From: a virus
Direction: 5' to 3' (one strand)
Virus record (IMG/VR): IMGVR_UViG_3300034358_000044
Location: 1 to 64,000 of that record
DNA: 64,000 nucleotides
Positions 12,612 through 58,102 of this stretch are shown here, piece by piece. Numbering within the stretch: position 1 is the first letter of the stretch; each line of letters begins with the position of its first letter. The position numbers were made by a program, and so were the translations under genes. Under the pieces are notes generated by a model, which made no database searches, was not told the origin of the DNA, and saw nothing but the letters and a program-made list of their open reading frames with translations.

Positions 12612-12986
12612 TCAGACTCCGCCAGGGCCTGTTGCAGGGTACATCGCCCCGCCCTGACTGATGTTCGCGGTGGACTGTCCATCGACCGGGGACTGTGACC
12701 TGTCAGGGGAGGCTGCAGCAGCGCTCCCCTGGTCGTAGTCCCGAACGTTGCGCTTCCTGGGGTGGCCAGCAGGCAACCCGAAGAAGGCATTGGCCTTGGA
12801 GGCAGGAGTCTCCGACTGAGGCTGCTGCTTCTGGACGCCAGGCTGTCCGCCCTTCTGCCGCCAGTCAGGGTTCTTGTCCTGGTCATCCTGCGGAGGGATG
12901 GAGGCATTGGTGACCATCTGCGCATCTTGGGAGACGGCGATCTTCACCAGTTCATCTTGGAAAGCAGCGAGGGTGTACGGATTCAT
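12612..12986 (-). CDS. ELxKIA-leader protein, Gln/Pro-rich (putative virion internal protein)
   Basis: MNPYTLAAFQDELVKIA. Confidence 0.75.
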   Translation of the reverse strand: MNPYTLAAFQDELVKIAVSQDAQMVTNASIPPQDDQDKNPDWRQKGGQPGVQKQQPQSETPASKANAFFGLPAGHPRKRNVRDYDQGSAAAASPDRSQSPVDGQSTANISQGGAMYPATGPGGV

Positions 12987-13366
12987 CGTGCTCCTAGTCC
13001 GAGTAGCTTCTTGGCCTTGAGCTTGGCCGCATCCCCGTCTGCCATCTGGCGTACGGCCTTCTCACTCTCCCGCTTGATGCCGAACTTCCGTGCGGAGCTT
13101 CCCGAGAAGTACCCGTCCATGGTCTTGGCGGTATTGGGGAGCGTGTTCCTGTTCGACACCAGCGCCGCCACGTCGGGAACCTTGATGGCGGCGTCTGCAG
13201 CTCGGAGGCCCTTCACCTTCGACAGTGTCTTGGCCGCCTCCCTGCCGGCGTTGTGCGCCTTGAGGCGCTCTGCAGCGTAGCCCACTTGGGACATCATCGC
13301 CCCACGTGAGAGACGTGCAATCTTCTCCAACTCGTTGCTGAACGCAGCCATGGTCTGGGGATGCAT
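12983..13366 (-). CDS. ELxKIA-leader protein, Lys/Ala-rich (putative virion internal protein)
   Basis: MHPQTMAAFSNELEKIA. Confidence 0.75.
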   Translation of the reverse strand: MHPQTMAAFSNELEKIARLSRGAMMSQVGYAAERLKAHNAGREAAKTLSKVKGLRAADAAIKVPDVAALVSNRNTLPNTAKTMDGYFSGSSARKFGIKRESEKAVRQMADGDAAKLKAKKLLGLGAR

Positions 13367-13405
13367 GGGTCGCAGCCTACCCTTGGATGGGTAGAAGAGA
13401 GAAGG

Positions 13406-13579
13406 TTACTTCTTCGCCTGCTTCTTGAGAGCCTTCTTCTCGCGCTTGATGTCCTTGGCGAGGACATTCAGTTTCTTCTCGATGTCCTGGATGTCCTTGT
13501 GGCTCTTGATGGCCAACTGGACCGTGTGGGTGATGAGCTCGTCGAGCGTCATGTTTTCGGGCTTCTTGGGACGTCCCAT
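13406..13579 (-). CDS. Small basic coiled-coil protein
   Basis: MGRPKK; AGGAG RBS. Confidence 0.7.
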   Translation of the reverse strand: MGRPKKPENMTLDELITHTVQLAIKSHKDIQDIEKKLNVLAKDIKREKKALKKQAKK

Positions 13580-14067
13580 TGTAGCTCCTTGAGTTTTAGT
13601 GCCCATTCGTCCATTTCTAGAGCTTCGTCAACATCCTCTATACCGTGGATGAACTCGTATTCCACTGGATCTTTGCTAGTGTCCACCTTGTTGTCGGTTA
13701 GCGTCTTGTGGAAGGCGGCAACGGCGGCGTAGGCCAACTCGCTTCTCAGGTTCTCAAGGGAGGTCAACTCCTCACCGTAGATGGTAGTTGCCCCTGCCGA
13801 CCCGACCCGAAGCTGGACAGAGGGCTTCGTGGGGTTGGGGTCCCACTTGGCGGATCGAAGCTCACTGAGGATGGCGGCGTCTGCCGCATTGAAGGCGACC
13901 TCGTAGGGGTCGAAGAGTGCTTCGGTGTCCGTGATGAACAGGGTGTGCTTCCCCTCGCACTCGTACTTCATCGACTGCGCCTCCCATCCCCCGTCATAGT
14001 CGACGATGCCATGGTCACCCACGTGCTTCATCGGAGTACCGTCCAAGGGACAGAAGAGTGGTTTCAT
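13549..14067 (-). CDS. Hypothetical protein
   Basis: Start MKPLFCP with ATGA overlap and GAAGGA RBS. Confidence 0.7.
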   Translation of the reverse strand: MKPLFCPLDGTPMKHVGDHGIVDYDGGWEAQSMKYECEGKHTLFITDTEALFDPYEVAFNAADAAILSELRSAKWDPNPTKPSVQLRVGSAGATTIYGEELTSLENLRSELAYAAVAAFHKTLTDNKVDTSKDPVEYEFIHGIEDVDEALEMDEWALKLKELQWDVPRSPKT

Positions 14068-14387
14068 TCCTTCTTCTCCTCTGTGACCATGTCGAACAAG
14101 CCCTTGTTGGCGATGATGGGAGGGGACCAGCCCTCCACCACCTGCTTGCGGTAGTCCTCCTCCGCTGGGTTGTACTTCTCCACCCCATCCTTGCCCTTGT
14201 ACCAGTAGCCGATGACGAGGATGTCGAGGGTGTCCGAATCGCCCAGCTTGTGCTTCTCGACCCACTCCTTGTACTCCTTCACGTCGAATCGGATGATGTC
14301 GTTGTAGTCTTCCGGAAGAGGCTCCTCAGTACGCGAGCCATCGTCGTTGATGCTGAAGGCTCCGTGGGAGCCAAAGATTTCAAACAT
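14064..14387 (-). CDS. Acidic hypothetical protein
   Basis: 107 aa, codon bias. Confidence 0.8.
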   Translation of the reverse strand: MFEIFGSHGAFSINDDGSRTEEPLPEDYNDIIRFDVKEYKEWVEKHKLGDSDTLDILVIGYWYKGKDGVEKYNPAEEDYRKQVVEGWSPPIIANKGLFDMVTEEKKE

Positions 14388-14460
14388 TGAGTAGTTCCTC
14401 TGAGGGTTGTTCGTTGGTGGTGTTCCTACTGAACTTCTCCTTCGTCAACTTGGTCAGCAT
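14380..14460 (-). CDS. Putative 26 aa peptide
   Basis: GGGAG RBS; fills the gap in the operon. Confidence 0.35.
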   Translation of the reverse strand: MLTKLTKEKFSRNTTNEQPSEELLNV

Positions 14461-14722
14461 CGAAGTTTCTCCCTTCCCTGTTGTGCATCCTTCGACGCAT
14501 CGTGGTGTCGATGGTGGACCAGATGCTTCTGCACCCGATGCAGCACTTGGTGCTCTCTGGAGCGAGAGACATCCTCGTTTTTCCCATGGAAATGGAGGAG
14601 CCTCCGCAGGCAGAGGTTGGTTCTGGATCATCACCGTAGAAGTAGTGGTACTTCCCAGTGACTTTGGACTCCATCCAGAAGTTGGCGTTTGGATCGGAGC
14701 CAGTTATTCTCTTAGCCATCAT
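14426..14722 (-). CDS. Hypothetical protein
   Basis: MMAKRITG start with GGAGAG RBS; Cys pairs. Confidence 0.6.
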   Translation of the reverse strand: MMAKRITGSDPNANFWMESKVTGKYHYFYGDDPEPTSACGGSSISMGKTRMSLAPESTKCCIGCRSIWSTIDTTMRRRMHNREGRNFDADQVDEGEVQ

Positions 14723-15233: not shown

Positions 15234-15235
15234 GG

Positions 15236-41753: not shown

Positions 41754-43172
41754 TTAGAGCTGGGGGTTCACACATTCCTGCGGACTCTTGTCCGTTCGTT
41801 CTTCGATGAAGGCGGCGAAGGTGAGGGCATTGGTGTCGTCGCCCTCGGAGATGTAGGTGCGCTCCTTGTACTCGACTCGCCACACCCTAGGCCACAACTT
41901 GACGTCGGCCATCTCCGTCTTCATCTGCTCCGTCATACCGCTGTTGAGGTTCGAGATGTACACCAGCTCGCCAGCACTGTTGTACTGGAAGAGCGCCACG
42001 CACTTGATGCCGTTGCCACCATACCGGCCCTTGGTGGAGAACTCACCTTGGCCTGATGCCGGGTTCCAGATGGCGATGAAATCGTCCTCGAAGGACGGCT
42101 TCAGCTTGGCGCAGAAGCTCCCAGGCCTGTCCGGCTTGCCCTTGAAGTTGAAGGCCTTGTCGCCGTACACGCCGTCCGGGTCCACCAGCACGAAGCCCTC
42201 CCACCCGTGGTGCTTCGCGATGGTCAGGGCTGCGTCAGTGGTAGGGAAGTGGTCGGCGGTGAAGATCTGCACCGGCCCTAGAGCGGTGCCCTGGTAGTCG
42301 AGCTCGTGTATGAGATCGAGCCGAGCTCTCACTGGCTGCTTGGAGACGAAGTCTTCTCCATTCCAGAAGGCAATGTCCCAGATGATGAAGGTCACGAACT
42401 TGCCCTCTCCATGGAGGAGCTCGTGCTGCTTCGACCGGCTCTCCATTGAGAGGCTCTTGGTGACACTCTGGATGGCCTTGAAATCCTCCAGCCCATTGGG
42501 GCCTTGGACTATCATCTCACCCAGTAGGATGCTGTTGGGAGGCATCAGGACCGAGGCAGCCTCGACAACGTAGGGGAACCTGTCATTCCAGGTGAGGTTG
42601 GTACCGGCCTCATCGTCATGCTGGCGCAGCATGCGCCGACTGTAGATTTGAATCGCCCCTTGGGCGTCTGAGACGATGACGTGCATCATCCCGTTCATCT
42701 TCCGGGTGTACCAGGCGTCACCATTCTCAGCCTTCTTGAGGAGGCCTGCTCCTGCCGCATTGAGAGGCTTGTAGAAGGCCAGGCTCTGCGGCAGGGGCTT
42801 GGTGAAGTCGATGGCAGGAGCCTCGATTGGATCGAGAGTCGTGTACTCCATCGTATCGTGGATGAAGGCGGAGACTTGAACCTCCCTGTAGCCCTCCCTG
42901 TACTTCAGCTCCATCTTCCTGAGCCCGAGAGCTAAGGCATTAGCGTTGGCGCTGACTTCGTTCTTCTTCCCTGCGTTGACGACGGGGGCCTTCTCGTTGA
43001 CCTCCTGCATGGCACCACCGAGCTGCCCCCACTTGCAGTAGAGGGTATCGTCGATTGCCCAAACTGTCCAAATTCTTGGAGAAGTGCTACGAGAGGCGAG
43101 CTGGATGAACTCCCTCTTCTCTCCCTTCCACTGGGCGTTGCGGTCTTGAAAAGTCACTGAGCTTCCTTTCAT
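41754..43172 (-). CDS. ATP-dependent DNA ligase with N-terminal WGR domain
   Basis: WGQLG..EGY (WGR); RKMNG (I), LLGE (III), IWDI (IIIa), WEGFV (IV), KLK (V); OB-fold tail. Confidence 0.85.
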   Translation of the reverse strand: MKGSSVTFQDRNAQWKGEKREFIQLASRSTSPRIWTVWAIDDTLYCKWGQLGGAMQEVNEKAPVVNAGKKNEVSANANALALGLRKMELKYREGYREVQVSAFIHDTMEYTTLDPIEAPAIDFTKPLPQSLAFYKPLNAAGAGLLKKAENGDAWYTRKMNGMMHVIVSDAQGAIQIYSRRMLRQHDDEAGTNLTWNDRFPYVVEAASVLMPPNSILLGEMIVQGPNGLEDFKAIQSVTKSLSMESRSKQHELLHGEGKFVTFIIWDIAFWNGEDFVSKQPVRARLDLIHELDYQGTALGPVQIFTADHFPTTDAALTIAKHHGWEGFVLVDPDGVYGDKAFNFKGKPDRPGSFCAKLKPSFEDDFIAIWNPASGQGEFSTKGRYGGNGIKCVALFQYNSAGELVYISNLNSGMTEQMKTEMADVKLWPRVWRVEYKERTYISEGDDTNALTFAAFIEERTDKSPQECVNPQL

Positions 43173-43199
43173 GGGACGTAAACTTCTACGTTGACACTG

Positions 43200-43211
43200 T
43201 CTTATCCCGAA
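43200..43211 (-). promoter_or_regulatory. Variant promoter motif TTCGGGATAAGA
   Basis: 10/12 match, 28 bp above the ligase start. Confidence 0.5.
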
Positions 43212-43224
43212 GATCAGGGAGGTA

Positions 43225-43455
43225 TTGACTATGGGCGATGGCGATGTAAGAATAGCTTCAATGGTCAGCGTGACCGTAGTAGACGCGGACAAGAAGACCA
43301 AAGAAGAGCTGTTGGGGTTGGTGGACTCGGAGGTGGAGAAGTTCTCCGACTTCATGGCCGCACTGGAGGACTGGCGGGCAAGAGGTGCCCTGAACAGCCC
43401 CGAGAAAGCTCTACTTCGTACGTACTTGATTCAGAAGATTCAAGGGAGACTCTGA
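43225..43455 (+). CDS. Hypothetical protein
   Basis: GGAGG RBS; 76 aa. Confidence 0.7.
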   Translation: MTMGDGDVRIASMVSVTVVDADKKTKEELLGLVDSEVEKFSDFMAALEDWRARGALNSPEKALLRTYLIQKIQGRL

Positions 43456-43845: not shown

Positions 43846-45972
43846 CTACGGCATCATGGGGGAGTAGTTGGTCGGGCACCCGCCGACGCACTCCATCTCC
43901 AAGACCATCACTTCCTTTTGACCGGGATGTGCATCAAACTGAGCTTTGGTGATGGGCTGAATGGGGGCGTTCTTCCGGCTCTTGTCGGGGAAGACAGTAG
44001 TTCCCTTCAAGTCGGGAAGAGCATCGATGAGCTGCTTCTCCATCTCCTCTTCGGTGAGGGACATCTGAGCCGGTAGGTTGATGGTGAAGGACACAGCGTT
44101 GTCCGCGAAGAACTCCTGGAACATCTTCTGGACCTGAAGGCTGTCCGCGAAGGAGATGTCGTACTGACCTTCCAGGACTTCGGCAGGGTCCCAGCCGGCG
44201 GCGCGAACCTTGGCCACCAGTGGATCCTCGAACCAGTAGACGACGATGTCGGTGTTCTTGGCGTCCTCGTCCGGGAAGACCTCGTAGCCTTCCGCACGTT
44301 TCACGGCGAGCTCAGCGTCATCCGAGGAGTAGCGCACCAGGCGCTTGCCCCAGGGCGTCATCATGCACTGGCCACTGGAAGTCGTCCCTGGGAGCATCGC
44401 CGTCGTGCCCGTGGGGGCCAGGGCGGTGTTCTTCACCGGAGGAGGGTAGCCGAGCTGGATGGAGTACGTGGTGGCCTCGGCCATCACGACGCCCTTGGCG
44501 GACATCAGCATGGTGTGGATCTTCGGGTCCTTCCAGCTCTCCGAGTACTTGATGCCGCGAAGAGCCAGGTAGGCGTGGAAGCCGAAGAAGCCGACCGCGA
44601 TGCGCCGGTTCCGGTCCACCACTGCACGCTGTCGAGGCTGGGGGATGTCCCCGTTGGTGGCCCTGACGAGCCAGCGCGTCATGAGGCGGAAGGCCTCCAT
44701 CATCTCCTTCTGTGGCCTCTTGGCGAAGGCCTCCAAGTTGACGTGGCCCAGGCAGCAGTTCTCCCACATCTGCAGGCCGATCTCTCCGCAGGGGTTGGGG
44801 CAGAACATGAGTTCCGGCTCCCGCTCTCCCTGCATGGCGAGGGTGCGATTCCAGAAGCCCGGCTCCCCGTTGGCCCTCTTGCCCAGAACGACTGCCCTCA
44901 TGACCTCTGAGGCAACGTGGTGGAGACTGGCATCAGGGTTCCGGTAGGCCTCGAAGAACTCGTCATCGACTTCGACTGAGATGTTCGAGCTCCACTGGGC
45001 GCCATCCGTGCGCTTGCAGTTGATGAACTCCATGATGTCCACGTCCGCCCAGTTCTTCACGGCGATGCGGCTGGAGCGCCTCTTGCCGCCTGCAACGACG
45101 CAGGCAGCCACGGTGTGGTCCAGGGTCATCGCGTCGAGGCTGGTGAGGTTCCTGCCGACGCAGCCGTTGAGGTGCTTGACGTAGTCCACCAGCATGGTGA
45201 CCAGGGGCTCTGGACCAGCAGCCGTTCCGCCACCAGCGCGCAGCGGGGCACCACGGCGTCGCACCCCGGAGACGTCGATGGTCAGGATGATGTCCTTCTC
45301 CCTGCGGTAGGGCTGGAAGGCGGCACGGGTGACCGTGTCGAGCGCCTTCACCCAACCCTCACGGCTGTCGGCCACGTTCATGTAGCTGGAGTCGCGCTCC
45401 CCGACGTGCTTCGAGAGGAGGTGGGCGAACTCGTGGTGGTCCGGGTGGGACTCGTTGCAGATGATGTGGAGGTCGATGGGGTTGGTGACCCTGGGCATGC
45501 CGTGCATGTACCGGTTCGAGTAGTTCGAGCCGACACCGCCGCCCATCATGAGCTCGTCGAAGGTGAAGGTGAAGTGGGCGGTAGGGTCCAGAGGATCCCA
45601 GCCAGCCGCGTGGCAGTTGAAGAGGTACTGACGGTCCTTCATCCCTGAAGCATTGAGATGGCGACCAGCAGGGAGAGCAGCGAAGGGCAGCAAAAGACCG
45701 ATGAGCTTGTTGCGCTCATCGGCCTCGATGAATGACTCTGGAACCAGTCCGAGGTTGCCATCGACGGCCCTCACGACTGTTTCGGCCCAGGTCTCTTTGT
45801 TTCCGTCTTCCTTCGTCTGGCTGTAGGTCCTCTTGAAGACCTGCTCACCCATGGGACCGAAGGGGATGCGTACGTCGTGGAACTGGGCCGGGAGAAAACC
45901 CTTCTCATGCATGGCAACTCCAGAACAATAGAAGCCCATCGGTGGCGACACCGTAGGGAGGAGGTTGGACAT
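43846..45972 (-). CDS. nrdJ: Class II (adenosylcobalamin-dependent) ribonucleotide reductase
   Basis: FKRTYS, PAGRHL, FNC, GGGVG, DSREGW, NPCGEI, RRIAVG, APTGT, C-terminal Cys pair; no NrdB partner nearby. Confidence 0.9.
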   Translation of the reverse strand: MSNLLPTVSPPMGFYCSGVAMHEKGFLPAQFHDVRIPFGPMGEQVFKRTYSQTKEDGNKETWAETVVRAVDGNLGLVPESFIEADERNKLIGLLLPFAALPAGRHLNASGMKDRQYLFNCHAAGWDPLDPTAHFTFTFDELMMGGGVGSNYSNRYMHGMPRVTNPIDLHIICNESHPDHHEFAHLLSKHVGERDSSYMNVADSREGWVKALDTVTRAAFQPYRREKDIILTIDVSGVRRRGAPLRAGGGTAAGPEPLVTMLVDYVKHLNGCVGRNLTSLDAMTLDHTVAACVVAGGKRRSSRIAVKNWADVDIMEFINCKRTDGAQWSSNISVEVDDEFFEAYRNPDASLHHVASEVMRAVVLGKRANGEPGFWNRTLAMQGEREPELMFCPNPCGEIGLQMWENCCLGHVNLEAFAKRPQKEMMEAFRLMTRWLVRATNGDIPQPRQRAVVDRNRRIAVGFFGFHAYLALRGIKYSESWKDPKIHTMLMSAKGVVMAEATTYSIQLGYPPPVKNTALAPTGTTAMLPGTTSSGQCMMTPWGKRLVRYSSDDAELAVKRAEGYEVFPDEDAKNTDIVVYWFEDPLVAKVRAAGWDPAEVLEGQYDISFADSLQVQKMFQEFFADNAVSFTINLPAQMSLTEEEMEKQLIDALPDLKGTTVFPDKSRKNAPIQPITKAQFDAHPGQKEVMVLEMECVGGCPTNYSPMMP

Positions 45973-46786: not shown

Positions 46787-49700
46787 ATGCTCAGCTCTAG
46801 TGACATCAGTGCCCTCATCAACGCCCAGAACCAGCAGTTCATGGGGCAGGCGCAGTATGCGCAGCAAGTGGGCATCTCGAATCCCAGTATGAGTCTTTCC
46901 TCTTGGGGTTCGGATCCACGTCAACGTGCTTTTGGGAGCCAAGGTACAGTGATGGGGCATGCTCCCATCAGCTACGCGCCAGGAGGGTATGCAGGTCCCT
47001 CTCACGGAGCAGGAAACAAGTTCGCTGGCGGTGCAATGGCTCTTGGAGGTGGAATAGCGTCCGCTGTAGCCATGACGGCGTTCGATCCGCTCTCTGCTTT
47101 CATGAAAGCTGGGGGCTACATGCCCAGCCTCTTTGGTGGAGTGGCTGGTGGTGGGGTGGGTGCTGGACTTGCTGCGACCGCAGCTCCACTGGCCCTGGGT
47201 ACTGCTGCTTCCGCTTATATCGGCGCCGGTATGCACGGAGCTCAGCAGCAACATCAGATTCAAGGACAGCTGGGGCAGTTCGGTTTTGCGAACTCGGCCT
47301 CTCGTACTGGGCAGGGGTTCACGAGGGATGACGCGCTGAGTATCGGAAATCAGATTCGGCATCTGGCGCACATCCCCGAGATGATGACCTCAGTGGATGA
47401 GCTCACCAAGCTCATCCCCAGGCTCAAGGCCTCTGGCATCATGCAGGGGGTCAAAGACGCGACGGAGTTCAACTCCCGGTTCAAGGATGCGGTGAAGACG
47501 ATTCGAGAGGTCTCCAAGGTCATCGGATCGACCATGGAAGAGGCCTCAGCCTTCTTCGAGCACAGTCGTTCTGTCGGCTTTCTAGGGAAGAATGACCAGC
47601 TCAAGAATGCCATGAACGTCCAGTTCACGGCGGCCCAGACTGGGATGTCTTCTGGGCAGGTGATGCAGGTTCAGCAGGCTGGTGCGCAGATGGCGGTTGG
47701 GCGGGGATTGCAGCGGAAGACCGGAACCACTGCCATCACCAACATCATGCAGGGGCTCGGAGCAGGAATGCAGTCTGGGCGTATCTCACAGGATCAGTTG
47801 GAGGACGTCACAGGGGTAGCTGGAGAGGGAGCAGTAGGTGCTGCTGCCCAGCAGATGGCCGAGAAGATGGCCAGGTTCGCAGAAGGTACTGCTGCAGGTC
47901 GTGCCTCCATGATGGGGTTGGCCAAGTTCGACGCCAATGGTCGCTTCGTCGGTATCGACCAGGACCTTGCAGACCGCTACGCCAGAGGTGAGGTCTCCAA
48001 GTCCGAGCTGATGGAGAGGATCGGCAAGTTCTCGAACCAGCAGAAGATCTCCGCCTCCAGGAAGACTGGGTCCATGGCCATGGAGTTCGCCGGCAAGGCG
48101 GGCCTGGGAGGTATCGGCGCCTTCATGAAGAACGTCTTGGCCGAGGGCGGACACACTGGGGAGTCGATGAAGTACATGCTCGGCCAGTACGGGTTCGGTG
48201 AGACCGAGCAGGACCTCATGGAGAATATGGCCGGGATGGGCAACATCGACAACACGAGTACTCGAACTGCCTACGAGAGAAAGCAGAAGATCGAGGCTGA
48301 AATTGCCGAGAGGACAGACCCCTCGAAGATCATGAAGCGCATTGGAACTCGTCTGAGCAATACGCTCGGATTTTCAGCTATCGGACATGCGGGTGCAGAA
48401 GGATTCGAGGCCATAGGTCGGGCCTACGATGAGTTCGTTGACGACCTTGTTGGCCGCTACGCCATCGGTCTTTCAGCGAAGGGCTCCCAGCACATGGCTG
48501 AGGCGCTATCTTCGGCAGAGGGGAGAGCTGGTCTCAAAAAGGTCTTCGCGCTGCACTCTCAGTTGCCGACGAGAGATGCACGAGCTGCTTCTTCTCTGGG
48601 AAGAGGGCTGGCTCAGGTGGCATCCTTGACCCCCTTCCATGGAGCCGTCGTAGGGGCCGGAGGTATTGAGGGAGCTGGTCGTCAAATCGACAAGATGATG
48701 CGTGGTGTTCATAGGACCCTCAACAGCGCCAGCTACGATGGTGCAGGGAGCTTTGAAGACCAGGTCGAGATCATGCAGGACAACTTCGGCATGAAGAAGG
48801 CCAGTGTCTCTCAGCTTCAGGATCGATTCACGGATCTTCGGAAGATGGGTGAGGGTGGGGTTGGAACCGATGTCGAAGACTTCACCAACCAGATGATAAA
48901 CCAGATTGGCAGGACGAAGTACGAGGAGGCCAATCAGGCGAACAAGATAGACATGCTCAGGAACATGTTCGAGGTACGGAGCTTCACCAACGCTGGGGTG
49001 GACAAGGGGGCAGACGCCTACAATGCGTTGATCAAGGCAAAGGGACTTGGTGCCAACGGAGCCAACGCTCATGCCGAAGCTGCCATGCTCATCAGTGGAG
49101 CGATGAAGATAGGTGTTGAAGGAAAGATGGAAGGCAGCTCCTACGCTGAGAAGGTCAAGAGGCACGCAGTCAGCGTTCAAGTAGCTGACAAAGACCTTCG
49201 AGATTCTCTTGGGTACAGTGGTGGATCTGAGGTCTCCTCAGCAATCGCTTCTGACTGGCAGGTGGGGGTCAATCTTCACAGCGCCCTGGTCGGAACCAAT
49301 GCTAGGAAGATTACCGACATCCTTCATGAGGATCCGACCCCAGAGAACAGGGAAGCTCTCGGTAAGCTTCTTGGAAGACCTACCCTTTCTGAGGACGAGT
49401 TCAACAAGACCAAAGCGGCGCATAAGAGTGTCGAGCTGCAGATCGACTCTGGAAATCCAGACAGCACCGAGCGGAGCAAGAGAAAGGCGAAGATCGCTGA
49501 CGCCATTGCTGGAAGGGTCAATGCCGAAGGTCAGAAGGATGTTGGAGCACTGCAGATTGCTGCTCGTGACGTAGTTCAAGGCATGGGGAAGGGCGAGCTA
49601 CGCGATGCCATGGAGGCTTTCGGACGCGAGTCGAATTCTGATAAGGCTATCGACAAGAGTGGGGAGCTCTACAAGACTATTGGGAAGAAGTCACGTCAGC

Positions 49701-50206
49701 TCACGGATCTGCAGGCGAGGCGTAAGGCCGAGAAGGACCCGGCAAAGCGGAAGAAGCTGGACGAGGAGCTGGAGTCCCTGTCCAAGGAGCTGGGCCCGGA
49801 AGTCATAAGCAAGATTCGGAGCTCTGCTTCGCAGGTGGAGAACTCCATCGGTAAGGTGGGTACCTCCACCACGGTCGAAAAACTGATGAGCGATACCGGT
49901 CTTACTGACGATCAAATCGGTCTTGGAAAGAAGGACACCAAGGTTCAAATCACCGACAAGATTCTCTCTGACATCAAGGCAAAGGTGGCCGAGGCTGGTG
50001 GGGCAGGGATCATCAACCCCACCAAGAACCAGAAGAAGGAAGCGCTTGACGAGAAGCTCAACACGACCTTGGTTGAGATAGGCGGTACCTTGAAGCAGGT
50101 GAACACCGGCCTTGCTCTTCAGGGAGCAGACAAGGATCAGCGCGCTGCGTACTACAAGAAGCATGGCGACACGTATCGCCTGGCTGTAGATGGAGACAAG
50201 CCATGA
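46787..50206 (+). CDS. Tape measure-like virion protein
   Basis: 1139 aa, Gly/Ala/Met-rich helical, heads the structural block. Confidence 0.65.
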   Translation: MLSSSDISALINAQNQQFMGQAQYAQQVGISNPSMSLSSWGSDPRQRAFGSQGTVMGHAPISYAPGGYAGPSHGAGNKFAGGAMALGGGIASAVAMTAFDPLSAFMKAGGYMPSLFGGVAGGGVGAGLAATAAPLALGTAASAYIGAGMHGAQQQHQIQGQLGQFGFANSASRTGQGFTRDDALSIGNQIRHLAHIPEMMTSVDELTKLIPRLKASGIMQGVKDATEFNSRFKDAVKTIREVSKVIGSTMEEASAFFEHSRSVGFLGKNDQLKNAMNVQFTAAQTGMSSGQVMQVQQAGAQMAVGRGLQRKTGTTAITNIMQGLGAGMQSGRISQDQLEDVTGVAGEGAVGAAAQQMAEKMARFAEGTAAGRASMMGLAKFDANGRFVGIDQDLADRYARGEVSKSELMERIGKFSNQQKISASRKTGSMAMEFAGKAGLGGIGAFMKNVLAEGGHTGESMKYMLGQYGFGETEQDLMENMAGMGNIDNTSTRTAYERKQKIEAEIAERTDPSKIMKRIGTRLSNTLGFSAIGHAGAEGFEAIGRAYDEFVDDLVGRYAIGLSAKGSQHMAEALSSAEGRAGLKKVFALHSQLPTRDARAASSLGRGLAQVASLTPFHGAVVGAGGIEGAGRQIDKMMRGVHRTLNSASYDGAGSFEDQVEIMQDNFGMKKASVSQLQDRFTDLRKMGEGGVGTDVEDFTNQMINQIGRTKYEEANQANKIDMLRNMFEVRSFTNAGVDKGADAYNALIKAKGLGANGANAHAEAAMLISGAMKIGVEGKMEGSSYAEKVKRHAVSVQVADKDLRDSLGYSGGSEVSSAIASDWQVGVNLHSALVGTNARKITDILHEDPTPENREALGKLLGRPTLSEDEFNKTKAAHKSVELQIDSGNPDSTERSKRKAKIADAIAGRVNAEGQKDVGALQIAARDVVQGMGKGELRDAMEAFGRESNSDKAIDKSGELYKTIGKKSRQLTDLQARRKAEKDPAKRKKLDEELESLSKELGPEVISKIRSSASQVENSIGKVGTSTTVEKLMSDTGLTDDQIGLGKKDTKVQITDKILSDIKAKVAEAGGAGIINPTKNQKKEALDEKLNTTLVEIGGTLKQVNTGLALQGADKDQRAAYYKKHGDTYRLAVDGDKP

Positions 50207-50418
50207 GCATCCAAGTTGTCATCTCCCAGAAGATGATTCTGGACGGGAAGCCGTGGACTGTATCGCTCATCCAGAACCCCACCATCGACGATGTTCTCGT
50301 CACGGAGGCACGACTTCAGGCGCACAACGTCGAGCAGGGAGCTGTCGTAACGAGTGATGACAGACGGGTAGCCAGGGACATCAGGGACTACCTCATTCGC
50401 TTCGGGGTGGAACACTAA
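50203..50418 (+). CDS. Small hypothetical protein
   Basis: 71 aa, ATGA overlap. Confidence 0.7.
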   Translation: MSIQVVISQKMILDGKPWTVSLIQNPTIDDVLVTEARLQAHNVEQGAVVTSDDRRVARDIRDYLIRFGVEH

Positions 50419-51845
50419 TGGGCGTTTTCGTGCAGGTCATACCAGATCGCTGGGGTTCCGCTTCGCAGGTGGCCAAGAAGGACACTGCTGGGAGAGGACA
50501 GGCCTCGGAGCCCTTCATCAGGCGACCCACGAATGGGATTCAGTTGAAGGAAGAGACCTTCGCCACGCTTCGGTTGGTGACGGCTGTCAACGGACAGAAC
50601 CAGCTCTTGGTGGATGCAGGTTCCAGAAGGAAGGGAATCATCAACTCGGAGGATGGGGAGCAGTTCCTCACCATTGGTGAGAAGCGCGCTACCGACATCT
50701 ACTCGAACTTCCTGTTGCAGTCGGTTCAAGAAGAGAGAACCGAGAAGCAGCAGATTCTGGAGACCTTCGGAGAGGCCTACATCTTTCTCTTCGGGCAGCG
50801 AGCCAGGGTCATCACCTTCTCCGGGATCCTAGCCAACACCTTCGACTTCAACTGGGAGGCGGAGTGGTGGGAGAACTACGATACCTATCTTCGAGGTACT
50901 CGCTGCGTGGAGAGCCAGGCGCAGGTGTTCATCTCCTACGACAACACCCTGGTGGGCGGCTACATCATCGCCACCTCATCCTCGAAGGACTCGACGACGC
51001 AGAACTACGTCCAGTTCACCTTCCAACTCTTCGTCACCTACTACAGCAACTTCTCGAACGTAGGAAACCCTTCAGCATTCCCACCAGGGGTGTCGTCTCC
51101 AGTTCAGTATTCAACAGAGGATCTGAAGAAGATGAGGCCCCATCTGGTAGACGACATACCAATTCAGAACTGGCCTCTTCTTGGAAACGGGTCTGAGCCT
51201 GGTCTCTTCGATGCGATTTCCAACGGGATCTCTCTGGTCTCGAACGCATGGAACTCGGCAGGAGCTATCGTCAACTCTGGAGTCAACAAGCTCTCCGCTT
51301 CACTCAATCTCGATGGCGTGAGAATCCCCATCGGATTTGCTGGAAGTCTTGTCTACGATGGAGCCCAACAGACGGCCGACAGTGAGTTGGTGGAGCTCAA
51401 GCAGAGGGCCTGGATCAACGGAAGGGTCTACTACACTACCTTCGACAAGAACGCTGAGGAGTACGTAGGGAAGGGGAGCCACTACGGGTCCTCTGCTGTT
51501 TCCAACTTCGGCAAGGATTCGGGATTGTACTTCTTCGGAGAGGATCCCTACTATCTCGACAACGCCTACACGAAGATCCAGACGGCAACGGAGATATGGG
51601 CAAAGAACGGGTACACCATGCCTCCAGAGGGATTGGGGACCATCTCGGGAGTTCTGGCGAACAACGTCGTTGGACTTGTAGGAGTTGGGGCTACTGAGGT
51701 GTGGAGGAGTGCCACGAGCTCTGGGGAGCAGGGCACCGCCACCTCGCCTACTTTCGCCGTAGGGTCTACTTCCAGTGGGCCCCCTTCTACTGGAGTAGTG
51801 ACCAAGGACCTCTCCAACATCAACGTGCCCAATGCCAGCAGCTAA
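50418..51845 (+). CDS. Putative tail tube-initiator/baseplate protein
   Basis: Beta-rich N-terminal half (LQSVQEERTEKQQILETFG...ITFSG...VQFTFQLFV) following the TMP-like gene. Confidence 0.55.
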   Translation: MGVFVQVIPDRWGSASQVAKKDTAGRGQASEPFIRRPTNGIQLKEETFATLRLVTAVNGQNQLLVDAGSRRKGIINSEDGEQFLTIGEKRATDIYSNFLLQSVQEERTEKQQILETFGEAYIFLFGQRARVITFSGILANTFDFNWEAEWWENYDTYLRGTRCVESQAQVFISYDNTLVGGYIIATSSSKDSTTQNYVQFTFQLFVTYYSNFSNVGNPSAFPPGVSSPVQYSTEDLKKMRPHLVDDIPIQNWPLLGNGSEPGLFDAISNGISLVSNAWNSAGAIVNSGVNKLSASLNLDGVRIPIGFAGSLVYDGAQQTADSELVELKQRAWINGRVYYTTFDKNAEEYVGKGSHYGSSAVSNFGKDSGLYFFGEDPYYLDNAYTKIQTATEIWAKNGYTMPPEGLGTISGVLANNVVGLVGVGATEVWRSATSSGEQGTATSPTFAVGSTSSGPPSTGVVTKDLSNINVPNASS

Positions 51846-54800
51846 GCTTCTCCGTCTGAGACTCCTCTTGGAAGGTGAGGAGGTGCCAGTCATCTCGGCC
51901 CAGGTCATGATCAACATTGGAGCCCCCGCTACGGCCTCCATTCAGATTATCCCTCTCGACTCAGCATTGGACTTCTTCCCACGGACGATGGTCCATCTCT
52001 TCTTCTTGGACGTCCAAGGAGTAGGGGAGGAGCAGACTTCGGAGTACAAGCTGCTTTTCGCTGGGGAGGTGGTGGGGTTCGCCTACTCTCAGACCCCGGC
52101 CAGCCGAGGGACCGTCCTTCAGTGCCTGGACTTCTCCAACTACTGGGATTCCTGCAACGCGATGGCAGTCTCCTACGGGCCCGGCGGCAACGCCTTCACC
52201 AACGATGGGTCCATCAATGGTGCCTCCATCGGCATGTTTACCGACATCCCAGGCGACAGCGCGGCTGAACACCTGGTCCGTTGGGTCCGTTCGCCTCCGG
52301 TTACGGCAGGACTCACGGGTGTGAGTGGACTCGCGGGGGGTATCATCCACATCATGGAGGCCATGGGGGGTGTTCCAGGGCACTTCAAGGGCATCAACGA
52401 TTTCTACACCGTGGCAGAGCTCCGCTGCCGGTTGATGAATCAAATCACGGCGGAAGAGAACGACTCCACGGCGTCCAGAGTTCTGAGCATCAAGGTCTTC
52501 GAGGAGTGGCTCAAGGGAGGTCTTCAGCAGGCGGGAGGGAACATCACCTTCCGCGACATCATGAACCTGCTCTTCTCCCACATCTTCTACGAGTTCGTTC
52601 CCAACCCAGCCCCCAAGTTCGACAATGGAAATGGTAGTAAGTCCACGAAGACGAACTCCATCGCACTCACGTCGAATTCAAAGGTAGCCGGTATAAGGAC
52701 TCGGCTGGATGAGATGAGAATGTCCCTCATTCTCCTCAATGGCCAAATCACTTTGATGGCGACAGGGGATATGATCCCCACAGTGACAGGTCTTTCTACT
52801 ATTCTTTCAGACATTCTCAAGGACTTGATCGCTCTCGGACAAAGCCCCTCTGAATTGACCAAGGCAAGAGCTTCTGTTCAGCAGGCGTCGAACGCTCTTA
52901 CGAAGCTCAAGACGGTAACTTCGTCATCCATCGAGAGCCGTCTCGCTTCGTTGCCAGAGGCTTGGAAGGCTATTGAGGATGCCATCGGGTTCCTTGACGC
53001 CGGCAAGGTCACGTCGATCTCTACTGAGTATTCAAGTCAACGACTCAAGGCGCACATCGTTCGTCCTGACTGCTGGTTTTCCTCGCCTCCCGTCTGCAAC
53101 GTCATCTTCCCAGAGATGTACGCCTCTCTCAGTTTCGACAGGAACTTCCTTCAGGAGACGACGAGGTTGCTCGTACACTCGTTCGACACGCTCATCGGAC
53201 GTGACCACCTGATGGCGAACCACATTCTCTCCCCCTTCATTGGGTTCGATGCGACCAAGTTGGCTAAGTACAAGGGGGCTGCGAGCTTCCGTATCCTGAT
53301 GGACCACGAGATTCACGTCGGTATCGTTTCGAAGACGGAGTGGATTCCCAACAGCGCTGGCATCAGTACGGACCTCGACGCCGAGCAGCTCAAGAAGGTC
53401 TCCTCAGGAAGGCTCTCCTGGCTCATCAAGGCGTCCCTCTACCACTTCTTCAAGGCTCGCTTCTCGGCACGACAGGTCTCCATCAACGGGCGCTTCAACC
53501 CTTCCCTGGTCTGTGGCTTCCCAGGGGCGGTCATCACCAGGCCCTACTACATCGACGGGGGGGCGGCTGCCCTTCGAAGGGCACACGGTGGCACTGACGT
53601 TCCTGACTCTGACATCAGTGGGCTCATTCACGAGAAGGCTGGGGAGTTCAACGCCCCTGCTCATTTCGTTGGACTGATTGGGGCGATTCAGCACTCCATC
53701 GATCAGTCCGGAGGAACAACTTCTGCTGTTCTCCACTACGCCCGGAAGCATCGTGGAATCGATGATGAGTTCATCGGCTACATGGTGGGCATGAAGGAGA
53801 ACACGGGAACTCGCGTCCTCAAGTACGAGTTGGAAATCGAGAAGGCTCTGGAGCTGGCAAGTCCTACGACCACGACCCCCAACATCAAGCCCATTGCTCT
53901 TTTGATGGGCGTGACCCCATCAAAGGATGAAGTGGAGAAGCCCAAGAAGACTGCCGGCAAGACCAGCTCGGTGAGGCCGAAGGTGTCCTCTCAGGAAGTG
54001 TCAGCAGCCTCGAAAGACCCAAAGGCTCAGGCCAGCGCCATCACTGCTTTCGTCTTCTCGACCAATACTGAGAGTGACACGGCTGGACAGGATAAGGTCG
54101 ATGAGAAGCCACCACGTACACATGTCGGGTCTATTTCAGAGGCCAATCGGACGAACGTGTTCATTCCTTTTGGCTCTTCGGCCAGCATCAAGGTGAACAG
54201 CAAGGAGGGGCTCTTCGGTGGGCGAATCGTGGGGATTGAGGTCCCCAAGGGTGCTACCCTTCAAACAGTAGCCTACGGGATCAGTGGGACGGTGCCGGTC
54301 TACGTAGCTCTCACTCCAACGAGAGATGGAACGGTCTACAAGTTCCAGACCGGTTCTCAGACCTTCAAGGCCAACAAGAGAGGAGACGCATTCACGCGCG
54401 TCATCATCTATGAGGAAGTCTCCTTCGCCGTGTCCGGATCACTTCCGATTGAAGAGATACTCAGGCCTTCCTGGTTTTCTACCGGTTACTCCAGTCAGCG
54501 CATCGGGAAGCAAATCTACCAGCCGTTCTTCGGGTGCGATGCTGTTGTTGACAACCTGGTTGTTTCCCCTGACTCCGCACCCCCTGCCGATGACGGTTCG
54601 GATCCTGAGCCGGTCGATGCTGCTACTTCGGCGCAAGACATGATGAAGAGGGTGTCAGCAGCGGAGTCTCAATCCAGGGCCATCTCAATCGAGAAGTCCC
54701 TCAACGTATTGGCCTACGAGTACGGCCAAGTGAAACTTCATGCGAGAGACGTCGAGTCTTTCATCGAGAGCTACACCAAGCGTCCCATCGCCACCTACCG

Positions 54801-55113
54801 GGACATCTTTGGTGACGCCCAACTGGACTTCACCATCAACAAGAAGGCTGTTGGTGGGGATGCACAGGTGAAGAAGAGGGAGGATGGAACGACTCCGAGG
54901 GTCGGGTTCCATACCGGAGCCACCCACAGTACGTTGGTGGACGTGGGGAACCTGGTTGGGCTGGCAACGGATCTTCAGTTGGGGTTCAAGAGGGTAGACA
55001 ACCTTGGAGCTTCAGAGCCTATGGTGACTCAGTACGATGTTCGCAAGCCCAAGAAGGATAGAGTGCGGACGTACATCGCGGACTTGACCAAGGGCCCCGG
55101 GTTCGTTGGATAG
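51832..55113 (+). CDS. Putative baseplate hub protein (gp27/VgrG-like)
   Basis: 1093 aa; LFAGEVVG...VLQCLDFSNY; SING.FNPSL.CGFP pattern typical of hubs; synteny. Confidence 0.6.
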   Translation: MPAAKLLRLRLLLEGEEVPVISAQVMINIGAPATASIQIIPLDSALDFFPRTMVHLFFLDVQGVGEEQTSEYKLLFAGEVVGFAYSQTPASRGTVLQCLDFSNYWDSCNAMAVSYGPGGNAFTNDGSINGASIGMFTDIPGDSAAEHLVRWVRSPPVTAGLTGVSGLAGGIIHIMEAMGGVPGHFKGINDFYTVAELRCRLMNQITAEENDSTASRVLSIKVFEEWLKGGLQQAGGNITFRDIMNLLFSHIFYEFVPNPAPKFDNGNGSKSTKTNSIALTSNSKVAGIRTRLDEMRMSLILLNGQITLMATGDMIPTVTGLSTILSDILKDLIALGQSPSELTKARASVQQASNALTKLKTVTSSSIESRLASLPEAWKAIEDAIGFLDAGKVTSISTEYSSQRLKAHIVRPDCWFSSPPVCNVIFPEMYASLSFDRNFLQETTRLLVHSFDTLIGRDHLMANHILSPFIGFDATKLAKYKGAASFRILMDHEIHVGIVSKTEWIPNSAGISTDLDAEQLKKVSSGRLSWLIKASLYHFFKARFSARQVSINGRFNPSLVCGFPGAVITRPYYIDGGAAALRRAHGGTDVPDSDISGLIHEKAGEFNAPAHFVGLIGAIQHSIDQSGGTTSAVLHYARKHRGIDDEFIGYMVGMKENTGTRVLKYELEIEKALELASPTTTTPNIKPIALLMGVTPSKDEVEKPKKTAGKTSSVRPKVSSQEVSAASKDPKAQASAITAFVFSTNTESDTAGQDKVDEKPPRTHVGSISEANRTNVFIPFGSSASIKVNSKEGLFGGRIVGIEVPKGATLQTVAYGISGTVPVYVALTPTRDGTVYKFQTGSQTFKANKRGDAFTRVIIYEEVSFAVSGSLPIEEILRPSWFSTGYSSQRIGKQIYQPFFGCDAVVDNLVVSPDSAPPADDGSDPEPVDAATSAQDMMKRVSAAESQSRAISIEKSLNVLAYEYGQVKLHARDVESFIESYTKRPIATYRDIFGDAQLDFTINKKAVGGDAQVKKREDGTTPRVGFHTGATHSTLVDVGNLVGLATDLQLGFKRVDNLGASEPMVTQYDVRKPKKDRVRTYIADLTKGPGFVG

Positions 55114-55170: not shown

Positions 55171-55491
55171 ATGAACTACTCCGACATGATGAAACAGGCA
55201 ATGCGGGGAGAGCTCCGCAAGATTGCCTTCTCTCGTATTGGGCGCAAGCCTATTGGCATCGATCGCCTTCTTGAGAGGGAGTCTGAGTCTCAGGAGACGC
55301 CGAGCAATGTCTTCGGCAAGGTGGATATCACTCCTGAGCAGTTCCAGGCGGACATCGAGAAGGTCTCTGGTATTGGGAAATCCATCGCTCTGATGGGCGT
55401 CGGGTCTCTCGGTACTCTTGGAGCCCAAAAAGCCAACAACGATCGCAAGATGGGCAAGATGATGCGGATGCAGCAGCAGCAGGGCTACTGA
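55171..55491 (+). CDS. ELxKIA-leader protein
   Basis: QAMRGELRKIA; C-terminal Gly-rich hydrophobic segment. Confidence 0.75.
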   Translation: MNYSDMMKQAMRGELRKIAFSRIGRKPIGIDRLLERESESQETPSNVFGKVDITPEQFQADIEKVSGIGKSIALMGVGSLGTLGAQKANNDRKMGKMMRMQQQQGY

Positions 55492-55499
55492 GAGGCCAC

Positions 55500-56186
55500 A
55501 TGGACTGGGCTGGAATTCGGGCTGGTCTTCAGGACGAGCTGGAGAAGATCGCTGCCTTCAGCTTGCAGGGACTGTCACCAGAGACGGTGATGGAGAAGAG
55601 TATCCCTCCTCCACCAATGGAGACTCCTGGTTTCAGCAAGGCTCGTGACATTCTTGAGCGAGCTTCTCAAGCCCAGGTGAAGACTGCGGCGAAGGCCTCA
55701 AAGTCTTCGAAGAAGGTACAGCAGGCCCTTCCCCAGCAGCTCGGTCTTGGCAAGATGGTGAACCAGGGGGATGATTCCCTCAACGAGAAGGCCAAGAGTG
55801 TTGCTGGGTACGGCTTGGCCGGTCTTGGTACTGGAGGGGCTCTTCATAAGGCCTACTCTTCGATTCCCAGTGTCCACGAGTCTGTCCGCCATCACTCCAT
55901 CAAGGACGAAGCAAAGTGGTTGGCCGAAGCGAAGCTGAACAACATCGGAAACAAGTTGATGGTCGGTGGGGCTCTCGTTGGCCTCGGCTATGGGGCCAAT
56001 CGTCTTCGTCAGAAGGCCAAGGCAAAGACCGGTACCATCACCAAGACCGCAACCCTGACGACTCCTGGGCAGTCACTGAAGGCTTCCAAGCAGGTGGGAA
56101 GCCTTAAGACCGCCCCAAGTTTGGCGGGACCAAGTACGACCTCACAGATTCGTGGTCAATTCATCGGCAAGAAGGGTATCCCATGA
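55500..56186 (+). CDS. ELxKIA-leader protein with glycine-zipper segments
   Basis: GLQDELEKIA; GYGLAGLGTGG; VGGALVGLGYG. Confidence 0.8.
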   Translation: MDWAGIRAGLQDELEKIAAFSLQGLSPETVMEKSIPPPPMETPGFSKARDILERASQAQVKTAAKASKSSKKVQQALPQQLGLGKMVNQGDDSLNEKAKSVAGYGLAGLGTGGALHKAYSSIPSVHESVRHHSIKDEAKWLAEAKLNNIGNKLMVGGALVGLGYGANRLRQKAKAKTGTITKTATLTTPGQSLKASKQVGSLKTAPSLAGPSTTSQIRGQFIGKKGIP

Positions 56187-57193
56187 AAAAGAAGATTGCA
56201 GTTGGAAACGGTGGGGAAGAGGAGCTGGAGCAGCTTCAGCGAATCGTCCTGACCCGCAACGACACCCGTGCTGCTGCCGATGTACTCTTCGGTGCTCCTG
56301 CCGCTGCTGCCAGGAAGGTGGACAGGGGGCTGCTGGAGAAGCTCTTCGTTCAGACGCCGGCTGCGGTGGTCATGGCGCCCAATCTCCAGAAGACCAGTGC
56401 GGTCCACGAGAAGATCGCCCGAGTCTTTGGGGAGTCACCCCCAGGCAACTCGATCGAGGGGGAGATTCCGTATCACGTTCGGAGGAAGGAGTACGAGTCC
56501 TACGCCAACAAGAAGTCCAGGGAGGCGCCGACTCCCTACAGCACGTCGGTTCCAACTGGGGCGCTGGTAGGCGGTCTCGGAGGGGCGGCGGTAGGTGCTG
56601 GGCACGCGGGTGTTCGCGGAGCTGCCATCGGCGGTCTCGGTGGGGCACTACTCGGCGGCCTGACTGGGGCAGGCCTGAGCGCCTCGGACAAGGCGCACAT
56701 CGAGTCCGCGAAGAAGGCCATCAAGTCCAGAGAGAACTTGGACAGTGCCTTGGCCGGGCACATTCATGCGGTCAAGCAGCATGCCCGGACGACCGAGGCA
56801 ATGGAGAGGGCCTCTGAGCGCATGTCGGCTGAGAGGAGGCACCAGGACACCATGTCCGCTCTGGGCGGTCTTGCAGATCGGGGACCGAGAGAGGTCAACG
56901 TCAATCACCACTACGAGGCCAAGAAGACCTCTGGGAAGTGCCTCAACTGCGGAGCTCCTGCTACTGGGGGCCTCTGCGAGTACTGCGGAGCGAACGACTT
57001 CTCCAAGACCTCTCATGTGGCCGCCTTCTTCGAGAAGCTGTCAGCTCCAACTGAAGCCCAGCAGCGGTACCCCGAGCTCCTGAAGGCTGCGGAGATGGAC
57101 ACCAAGAAGGTGCTCTCCATCAAGCCTCGGGTGACCACGGACACGACGGGTACTACCCCCACTCGGTCGTCTCTTTCTGGTGGAAGCGCGTAG
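56183..57193 (+). CDS. Glycine-zipper protein with Zn ribbon and KIA/KTS motifs
   Basis: MKKKIA, QKTSAVHEKIA, GGLGGAAVGAG...GGLTGAG, CLNCG...CEYCG. Confidence 0.8.
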   Translation: MKKKIAVGNGGEEELEQLQRIVLTRNDTRAAADVLFGAPAAAARKVDRGLLEKLFVQTPAAVVMAPNLQKTSAVHEKIARVFGESPPGNSIEGEIPYHVRRKEYESYANKKSREAPTPYSTSVPTGALVGGLGGAAVGAGHAGVRGAAIGGLGGALLGGLTGAGLSASDKAHIESAKKAIKSRENLDSALAGHIHAVKQHARTTEAMERASERMSAERRHQDTMSALGGLADRGPREVNVNHHYEAKKTSGKCLNCGAPATGGLCEYCGANDFSKTSHVAAFFEKLSAPTEAQQRYPELLKAAEMDTKKVLSIKPRVTTDTTGTTPTRSSLSGGSA

Positions 57194-57196
57194 CCG

Positions 57197-58102
57197 ATGC
57201 CCGGCCTGGAAGACAGGGGCCAGGCCCTAGAATGGGTTCTGGGTAAGATTGCTGCAGCCTCGAAGAAGGCTCCGGCGAAGCCTGCCTACAGCATTCCCAA
57301 GTTCGAGCCTTCCAAGCCTGCTTCCTTTCAACCAGCGGCCCCTCTCGGTGCCGAGAGGAAGCAGAAGGAGGTCGATCTCTGGCACCAGTGGAACAACAAC
57401 GGTCGGAAGCCAAAGGACTTGGATCCGCTTCTCAAGTCCTTCAGCAACGTGATTCAGAAGAGGATGAACTCTTTTCGTGGTGCAGAAGTCCCGAAGTCAG
57501 CCATCCAGCACAAGCTCAAGACATTTGCTGTCGAGGCCTTCAAGACGTGGGATCCCAAGAAGGGTGGAGCTCTCAATACCTGGGTCACCATCAAGTTGAA
57601 ACCTGGTGAGCGATACGTCAACTCGAACAAGAATCAGACGTACTCCCCAGAGAACATCACGCAGCACATCGGTTCGTACAATACCCTCAAGTCTGAGCTC
57701 CACGAGAAGCTTGGGTACGAACCTGATGCCCACTACATCCATGACCACCTGTTGGAATTCGGTCATCCCAAGGAGACTTTCGCTGCCCTCTCCTTGAAGG
57801 ACATCAAGCGCCTGGAGAAGGAACAGCGTCGAAGCCTGGTGGCCTCCTCTCATGACTCAGAGGAGATTACCGGAGTCCCCAACATGTCTTCTCGGGCAGA
57901 AGAGGTGAAGCACCTCATCATTCCCGAGCTGACCCACGAGGAGAGGGCAGTCCACGAGTTCAGCTTCGGTCTCAACGGGAAGGCACAGTTGAAACCCGGG
58001 GAGATTGCCAAGAAGTTGAAGATGGACAACAGCAAGGTCTCGAAGTTGAGGTCCTCCATCCTGAGGAAGATGCAGAAGCACATGGGAGGAGAAGATGAGT
58101 GA
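57197..58102 (+). CDS. Sigma70-family (group 3, FliA/WhiG-like) RNA polymerase sigma factor
   Basis: Region 2 AFKTWDPKKGGALNTWV; region 3 KLGYEPD; region 4 LTHEERAVHEFSFGLNG..LKPGEIAKKLKMDNSKVSKL. Confidence 0.8.
   Translation: MPGLEDRGQALEWVLGKIAAASKKAPAKPAYSIPKFEPSKPASFQPAAPLGAERKQKEVDLWHQWNNNGRKPKDLDPLLKSFSNVIQKRMNSFRGAEVPKSAIQHKLKTFAVEAFKTWDPKKGGALNTWVTIKLKPGERYVNSNKNQTYSPENITQHIGSYNTLKSELHEKLGYEPDAHYIHDHLLEFGHPKETFAALSLKDIKRLEKEQRRSLVASSHDSEEITGVPNMSSRAEEVKHLIIPELTHEERAVHEFSFGLNGKAQLKPGEIAKKLKMDNSKVSKLRSSILRKMQKHMGGEDE

Follow-up and report, generated by a model that had tools for sequence, protein, structure and literature searches.

In this study we analysed a 64,000-nucleotide stretch of viral DNA (hereafter the window), comprising bases 1-64000 of a 195,735-bp IMG/VR virus record that is rated complete, in which several otherwise unrelated proteins begin with the same 17-residue leader. 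We consider it probable, at roughly 60%, that this leader is a capsid-targeting propeptide similar to the capsid-targeting sequence (CTS) of bacteriophage T4 and provided with a Lys-type cleavage site, combining targeting and cleavage in one element. The narrower claim, that the proteins bearing the leader (the carriers) are substrates of the head protease, deserves somewhat more confidence. An initial annotation of the window had already put forward a T4-like targeting peptide closing in a K-x-A site; the proposal fits every indirect test that was run, and packaging and cleavage are steps that we infer. To judge from PHROG matches, the genome is that of a myovirus, with a large terminase (142158-143951), a head-maturation-protease-like gene (147148-148758), a major head protein (152444-153565) and a tail sheath (165744-169133). 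Its nearest cultured relatives are Salmonella phage Arash and the Vibrio phages D69, D148 and D181, whose capsid proteins are about 30% identical to its own.

The leader and its copies

The initial annotation had described six shared N-termini in the window, with a lysine at residue 15 to 17, and translation finds all of them in place, with the lysine at residues 15, 15, 17, 17, 16 and 17 in genomic order. Five of these open reading frames (ORFs) start with the consensus M-x5-A-F-x-D-E-L-x-K-I-A. The DNA pattern for E-L-x-K-I-A has 5 matches in the window, against 0.02 ± 0.14 in 100 shuffles, and all five sit 12-14 codons past a start codon. On the minus strand, a 124-aa protein (12612-12986) begins with MNPYTLAAFQDELVKIA (profile score 27.6; leader at residues 1-17, nt 12936-12986) and continues into a Q-rich mature part without kinship to the other carriers, while a 127-aa protein (12983-13366) begins with MHPQTMAAFSNELEKIA (profile score 28.0; leader at residues 1-17, nt 13316-13366) and has a mature part with an isoelectric point (pI) of 10.7. 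The plus strand encodes a 459-aa protein (30716-32095) with the N-terminus MAIPMTMFRAFVDELTKIA (leader nt 30716-30772; an alternative start is possible at 30728) and a 106-aa protein (55171-55491) that starts with MNYSDMMKQAMRGELRKIA, in which the leader (nt 55171-55227; profile score 14.9) is a weaker copy, A-M-R-G-E-L-R-K-I-A. It also encodes a 228-aa protein (55500-56186) starting with MDWAGIRAGLQDELEKIA (leader nt 55500-55553; profile score 12.9), which holds internal VKTAA (61), TKTAT (182) and LKTAP (203) sites. The sixth N-terminus, MPGLEDRGQALEWVLGKIA, is a degenerate, loose form of the leader on a predicted sigma70-family sigma factor of 301 aa (57197-58102, plus strand). The leader profile gives no match to this protein, which by its sequence we assign to a looser class of N-terminal extensions closing in phi-x-K-x-A-A.

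The genome-wide motif scan that had been suggested as a check bore the pattern out. Scans combined with a profile built from 121 copies of the leader give 15 carriers in the whole genome, those outside the window starting at 120985, 122415, 139045, 149841, 155208, 155704, 157989, 158825 and 164610, and in each of the 15 copies the start codon lies 10-14 codons ahead of the leucine of E-L-x-K. Searched with a degenerate DNA pattern, IMG/VR yielded more than 118 related contigs, in which the start codon is found 8-16 codons upstream in 143 of 179 motif instances, the commonest distance being 11. All 18 near-complete related genomes that were compared contain the leader, in 2-11 copies each. The profile shows no variation at E12 and K15, which are followed by I16 (99%), A17 (96%), L13 (95%), F9 (93%), and A8 and D11 (87% each). 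A full-text search of the literature found no paper containing the motif strings of the leader.

The conservation resides in the protein. Among the copies of this genome, the first and second codon positions of the conserved residues are 99% identical, whereas third positions have an identity of 0.587, where 0.607 would follow from codon usage, and every codon for Leu, Ile, Ala, Glu and Lys occurs. Synonymous positions are therefore as free as codon usage permits, and selection on the leader acts at the protein level, not on the DNA. These figures leave a negligible chance to the explanation that the element acts as nucleic acid, for instance as an RNA or DNA motif with a part in translation initiation or regulation at the start of late genes. 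A position always at the 5' end of ORFs would suit such an element, yet some copies are internal in long ORFs.

The leader is also linked to the head genes by its orientation. The head-gene strand holds 13 of the 15 leader genes of this genome, compared with 49% of all genes (P = 0.003), and the protease-gene strand holds 89 of the 94 pattern matches in the 18 related genomes, where a reversed control pattern gave 2 matches. In general, leader genes are co-oriented with virion modules and often embedded in them.

About one in ten of the leader cores in relatives is internal in an ORF. In the genome studied here, a 150-aa ORF (149610-150062; L013:5610-6062) has the leader at about residues 78-92, as does its ortholog in L095; the ORF may represent a pair of genes or a single protein that is cleaved in the middle. 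In a related contig, a 792-aa ORF (L022:9164-11539) contains an ATP-dependent DNA ligase domain and then a leader core at residue 576, which is followed by 217 further residues.

As to the form of the peptide, Sec, Tat or lipoprotein signal features are not seen in the leader, which lacks a hydrophobic run and contains D, E and K; such a signal has a hydrophobic core of about 10-20 residues behind a basic N-region. The amphipathic helix of the initial annotation is plausible, with moderate evidence behind it, the hydrophobic moment of the leader exceeding the shuffle mean in 13 of 14 cases and reaching a nominal 5% level in only four.

The head protease and the phi-x-K-x-A site

A prohead protease had been expected elsewhere in the genome, and the product of 147148-148758 (536 aa) answers to it. 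Its model, built from 21 homologs and with a predicted local distance difference test (pLDDT) score above 90 in the core, aligns in VIA-align with T4 gp21 (5jbl_A) at Z 9.8 over 133 residues, with a root-mean-square deviation of 2.9 Å; the next matches are the proteases of the herpesviruses varicella-zoster virus (Z 8.8) and human cytomegalovirus (Z 6.3). The protein matches PHROG 18299, and HHxNKD and SMG blocks are conserved in its homologs. It has no match in Pfam or in a sequence search of the PDB; in Foldseek the signal is weak (best relevant E 0.07), and VIA-align alone gave the clear gp21 match. On the strength of its model, we identify it as a head protease of the gp21/assemblin fold. 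The gene is encoded in all 18 near-complete leader-bearing genomes. In five relatives (G004, G015, G017, G022 and G025; e.g., L153:10806-14798) the protease ORFs are 935-1679 aa long and match in pieces, the gene being broken up by large insertions that may be inteins.

A short motif, phi-x-K-x-A, recurs in the protease and its neighbours. In the 21 protease homologs it is present with invariant K29 and A31 just ahead of the catalytic domain and with invariant K242 and A244 just past it, and more copies lie in the variable C-terminal linker. It is also found near the N-termini of scaffold-like proteins, e.g., as D-L-E-K-L-A-A in the acidic protein encoded at 148815-149594 (pI 4.7), six times in the scaffold-like 145263-146306, and at the N-terminus of the capsid protein as G-K-D-K-I-A-E. 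A further scaffold-like protein is encoded at 150055-151440. Across the proteome, the broad pattern [LMFIV]-x-K-[ILVTMQ]-A occurs at 59 sites against 25.7 ± 5.1 expected, and within the first 40 residues at 22 against 4.1 ± 1.9. The motif is likewise present in the proteases and adjoining head proteins of Arash, D69 and Bacillus phage G. From this distribution, phi-x-K-x-A is a putative cleavage site, at which the protease would cut. In phage G the solved capsid chain (6wkk) has 280 aa and the gene 282 aa, a difference that is uninformative on a propeptide, and cleavage sites sought in the phage G multi-omics paper are not given there.

The tail of the leader, L-x-K-I-A, is one case of phi-x-K-x-A, while the A-F-x-D-E upstream of it is specific to the leader, A8, F9, D11 and E12 being conserved at 87-100% in leaders and not at generic phi-x-K-x-A sites. 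The shared tail and the leader-specific upstream residues imply that the tag has two halves. The N-terminus of the scaffold-like protein at 148815-149594 (L013:4815-5594), M-D-P-x-L-A-x-I-Y-G-T ... D-L-E-K-L-A-A, resembles the leader with a short insertion, and this suggests that the cargo leader copies the propeptide of the scaffold itself. Related K-[IT]-[AS] sites at internal positions were a further element of the initial annotation. These sites do exist, in 55500-56186, 30716-32095 and 56183-57193, while their excess in the six proteins is marginal (5 against 1.96 ± 1.36, P 0.046).

The cargo and its genomic context

Beyond the leader the carriers diverge completely. Their post-leader sequences have no significant mutual similarity (best blastp E 0.31), in agreement with the unrelated downstream sequences noted at the outset, and their lengths range from 73 to 748 aa. 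A common trait is charge: in this genome the pI of the mature part exceeds 9.5 in 13 of 14 carriers, compared with 10% of the other genes (Mann-Whitney P = 4e-8), and the carriers of relatives have a median pI of 10.2 and a median length of 134 aa. Among 125 carriers searched against Pfam most belong to no family, and a few contain unrelated domains (SNF2 helicase, C92 peptidase, histidine phosphatase, GNAT, glyoxalase and MazG). In the window, the mature part of 30716-32095 combines a MazG-like pyrophosphohydrolase (E 7e-5, above the curated cut-off) with a P-loop NTPase/kinase-like region, and the protein matches a thymidylate-kinase PHROG (E 3e-4); the expectation of an enzyme among the carriers thus holds for this protein. 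Membrane-active carriers had also been expected, an expectation that finds no support, a Kyte-Doolittle scan finding a hydrophobic span in 0 of 14 carriers of this genome and in 9 of 127 in relatives. Given the near absence of such spans, membrane activity was rejected as a general property of the cargo. Glycine-zipper patterns are present in some carriers only.

Several carriers stand in tandem (12612/12983, 55171/55500 and 157989/158825), as would be expected if the shared N-terminus were the remnant of one duplicated and diverged gene family, with no common function. This origin is highly improbable in view of the spread in length, of Pfam domains as different as MazG and SNF2, and of orthologs in Arash that begin exactly at the conserved core, with no leader. 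Moreover, 17 residues are near-invariant and the remainder of the proteins has nothing in common, which points to selection on the tag itself. The unrelated mature parts and the free synonymous positions led us to reject both the paralog remnant and the RNA-level element.

Two carriers, a sigma factor and a helicase, can be followed into a cultured relative. The protein encoded at 57197-58102 is modelled with a helix at residues 5-23, ending V-L-G-K-I-A-A, a flexible linker at residues 24-49 and a sigma core. Its Foldseek matches are to sigmaS, sigmaA and sigmaB chains (E 2e-6, probability 1.00, about 250-280 columns), and the model identifies it as a sigma70-family sigma factor of helical sigma2-sigma4 architecture; in this way the fold confirms the presence of a sigma factor among the carriers, as originally suggested. 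It is the ortholog of Arash gp10. In 15 of 20 sigma orthologs, a variable N-terminal extension of about 15-25 residues closes in phi-x-K-x-A-A or a close variant and directly precedes the conserved core; the extension is missing in five orthologs (L176, L180, L182, L183 and L184) and in Arash. The SNF2 helicase, in a virion module with its true start at 155704 (genome 155704-157950; L013:11704-13950), has the leader MHVATLTAFEDELEKEA, in which K-E-A replaces K-I-A, and it is the ortholog of Arash gp217 (36% identity, E 3e-75). Mass spectrometry of Arash virions gave 467 spectra for the gp10 sigma factor and 1148 for the gp217 helicase, which is among the most abundant proteins in the data (PMC10585845). 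Both Arash proteins begin at the conserved core and have no leader, which makes the leader a clean add-on.

By family, sigma factors and SNF2 helicases are partners of RNA polymerase. On a rival view the leader docks its carrier not on the prohead but on some other partner, which could be a chaperone, an unfoldase or degradation machine, or the RNA polymerase of the phage; it might also signal timing or degradation. The near-invariance of the leader across hosts that differ widely in G+C calls for a conserved partner and leaves its identity unsaid, which suits this explanation as well. We nonetheless regard it as decidedly unlikely, given that most carriers are small, basic, family-less proteins or unrelated enzymes, that the leader closes in the motif marking the protease, scaffold and capsid proteins, and that its genes are co-oriented with virion modules, often lying inside them.

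The sigma factor gene belongs to a block of the window (about 50-58 kb) that is partly syntenic with Arash gp4-gp12, by way of gp6 and gp10. The 475-aa homolog of gp6 (50418-51845, plus strand) marks the block as a virion-protein module, gp6 being a virion protein by mass spectrometry. Between two leader genes, a 336-aa protein (56183-57193, plus strand) contains six K-[ILVTM]-[AS] sites, including an N-terminal MKKKIA, and is by its sequence a candidate protease substrate. Three large ORFs (1139, 475 and 1093 aa) without PHROG match occupy window positions 46787-55113. In size and order they parallel the Arash virion proteins gp4, gp6 and gp8, the last of which is a cell-wall hydrolase, and only the 475-aa ORF is detectably homologous to Arash. 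Just ahead of the virion-protein block, the minus strand encodes a ribonucleotide reductase (43846-45972), which matches PHROG 367 (E 5e-170), and an ATP-dependent DNA ligase (41754-43355).

Comparison with known systems and the proposed role

Short cargo tags for protein shells are known from other systems. The cargo-loading peptide of encapsulins is short and conserved and tethers diverse enzymes inside an HK97-fold shell; it is usually C-terminal and uncleaved, and needs neither a protease nor a scaffold. By contrast, the leader described here is N-terminal, belongs to a tailed phage and has a protease-type motif at its end.

The closest parallel is the CTS of T4, which is carried by IPI, IPII, IPIII and Alt and removed by the prohead protease gp21 (PMC9026906; Mullaney and Black, 1996, cited there). 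Targeting depends on its residues 4 and 7 and processing on residues 8 and 10, and the T4 internal proteins are basic and co-purify with the scaffold gp22 (PMC9026906). In both systems, a short N-terminal peptide (10-19 aa in T4, 17 aa here) stands on unrelated, mostly small and basic proteins and divides into two parts, of which the upstream one serves for targeting and the final one as the protease site, roles that for the leader are proposed. Both also have a protease of the gp21/assemblin fold with copies of its own site motif, here the putative one, at both ends, an acidic scaffold, and a cargo set that differs between related phages. The two peptides share no sequence similarity, however, and the candidate site here is phi-x-K-x-A, with Lys, instead of the (L/I)-x-E of T4. 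The present tag is far more conserved, being near-invariant over well over 100 contigs, and among its cargo are a sigma factor and an SNF2 helicase; the clade to which the phage belongs packages a multisubunit RNA polymerase. The leader would act like a CTS and, judged by sequence, is not a member of the T4 CTS family.

In phiKZ, 201phi2-1 and SPN3US, the propeptides of head and ejection proteins are cut by gp175/gp245 at (A/S/G)-x-E (PMC10052503). There too a gp21-type protease removes N-terminal propeptides, some of just 20-24 residues, from packaged proteins, several copies of the motif occur per propeptide, and the protease processes itself at its C-terminus. The comparison with phiKZ made in the initial annotation is sound in principle and departs in the motif: those phages have no common leader and cut after Glu, while here one stereotyped leader is found on many proteins and Lys is the key residue. 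The capsid protein, protease, sigma factor, helicase and RNA polymerase of the phage studied here have homologs in Arash, D69, D148 and D181 (PMC10585845), which also possess short phi-x-K-x-A motifs near the N-termini of protease, scaffold-like and capsid proteins. These relatives differ in having 0 matches to E-L-x-K-I-A leaders, Arash possessing at most one leader-like N-terminus. In Arash (OQ632216.1, about 149650-149700; L137/L138), gp225 holds an internal M-N-T-D-L-I-R-N-R-A-G-D-L-S-K-I-A with the exact spacing of the leader, and its annotated start may be too far upstream.

On the capsid-targeting reading, the first half of the leader, M-x-P-x-T-L-A-A-F-x-D-E, probably forms one face of a short helix and would dock the nascent carrier on the scaffold core of the prohead. 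The other half, L-x-K-I-A, would reproduce the phi-x-K-x-A site at which the protease is proposed to process the capsid protein, the scaffold-like proteins and its own chain, and the leader would be clipped by the protease once the shell closes. The basic mature protein would then stay with the DNA and enter the next host alongside it. The proposed cargo comprises small proteins without assigned function, the MazG-kinase enzyme, the SNF2 helicase and, with the looser form of the leader, the sigma factor.

Several points weigh against this model. The leader-bearing phages are all uncultured, and each step after translation, from docking and cleavage to retention in the head and, finally, ejection, is one that we infer. 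The sequence accommodates a cut after K as readily as a cut after A. Two carriers of the window (12612-13366) are encoded opposite the head-gene strand and have small genes around them. The bare 10-residue core is also present in cellular PhoU, PAC2, AAA+ ATPases, DXP synthase and an aminotransferase (in 596 Gb of prokaryote genomes), a chance occurrence which means that the core alone is not diagnostic; it becomes diagnostic through its constant place at the N-terminus and its many copies per phage. A single transketolase-type leader protein among the relatives may be a coincidence. Arash, finally, packages its sigma factor and helicase leaderless, so that there are ways into the head besides the leader. 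The virion preparation of Arash comprises 116 proteins, including a ligase and a primase, with several K-x-A-site proteins covered at 100%, and is probably not clean; with that number of proteins and that full coverage it proves neither specific packaging nor processing. Its supplement gives annotation only, without peptides, and K-x-A processing is not readable from it.

Leaderless packaging in Arash also speaks for a simpler explanation, in which the leader is only a protease-site propeptide and the carriers enter the prohead through their charge or through binding of the mature part to DNA, RNA polymerase or scaffold, the extra conserved residues merely improving the substrate. The extensions of the sigma orthologs, highly variable upstream of phi-x-K-x-A, are in line with it, and a uniformly basic cargo could itself bind an acidic scaffold. 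Nevertheless, this explanation is unlikely. A8, F9, D11 and E12 match the residues of the site in conservation, among phages whose capsid proteins are 28-60% identical; a mere cleavage site needs no fixed distance from the start codon; and in T4 the equivalent upstream residues do the targeting (PMC9026906).

A wider claim, to which we would give a little less than an even chance, is that the leader is a self-sufficient, portable capsid-loading tag of a whole uncultured clade of phages of about 170-210 kb, whose protease would represent a new specificity class among gp21/assemblin-fold enzymes, one that recognizes Lys-x-Ala and does not cut after Glu. On this claim, the proteins that hundreds of uncultured phages inject, among them a sigma factor, an RNA-polymerase-associated helicase and nucleotide enzymes, could become readable from sequence. 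If the capsid-targeting reading is right, the T4 principle of "target, then clip" reaches a distant lineage with a different protease code, and the compact, highly conserved tag could serve for loading phage heads with foreign proteins. For a large group of uncultured phages, the tag would then list the proteins that enter the cell together with the DNA, including transcription factors and enzymes that act ahead of any phage gene expression.

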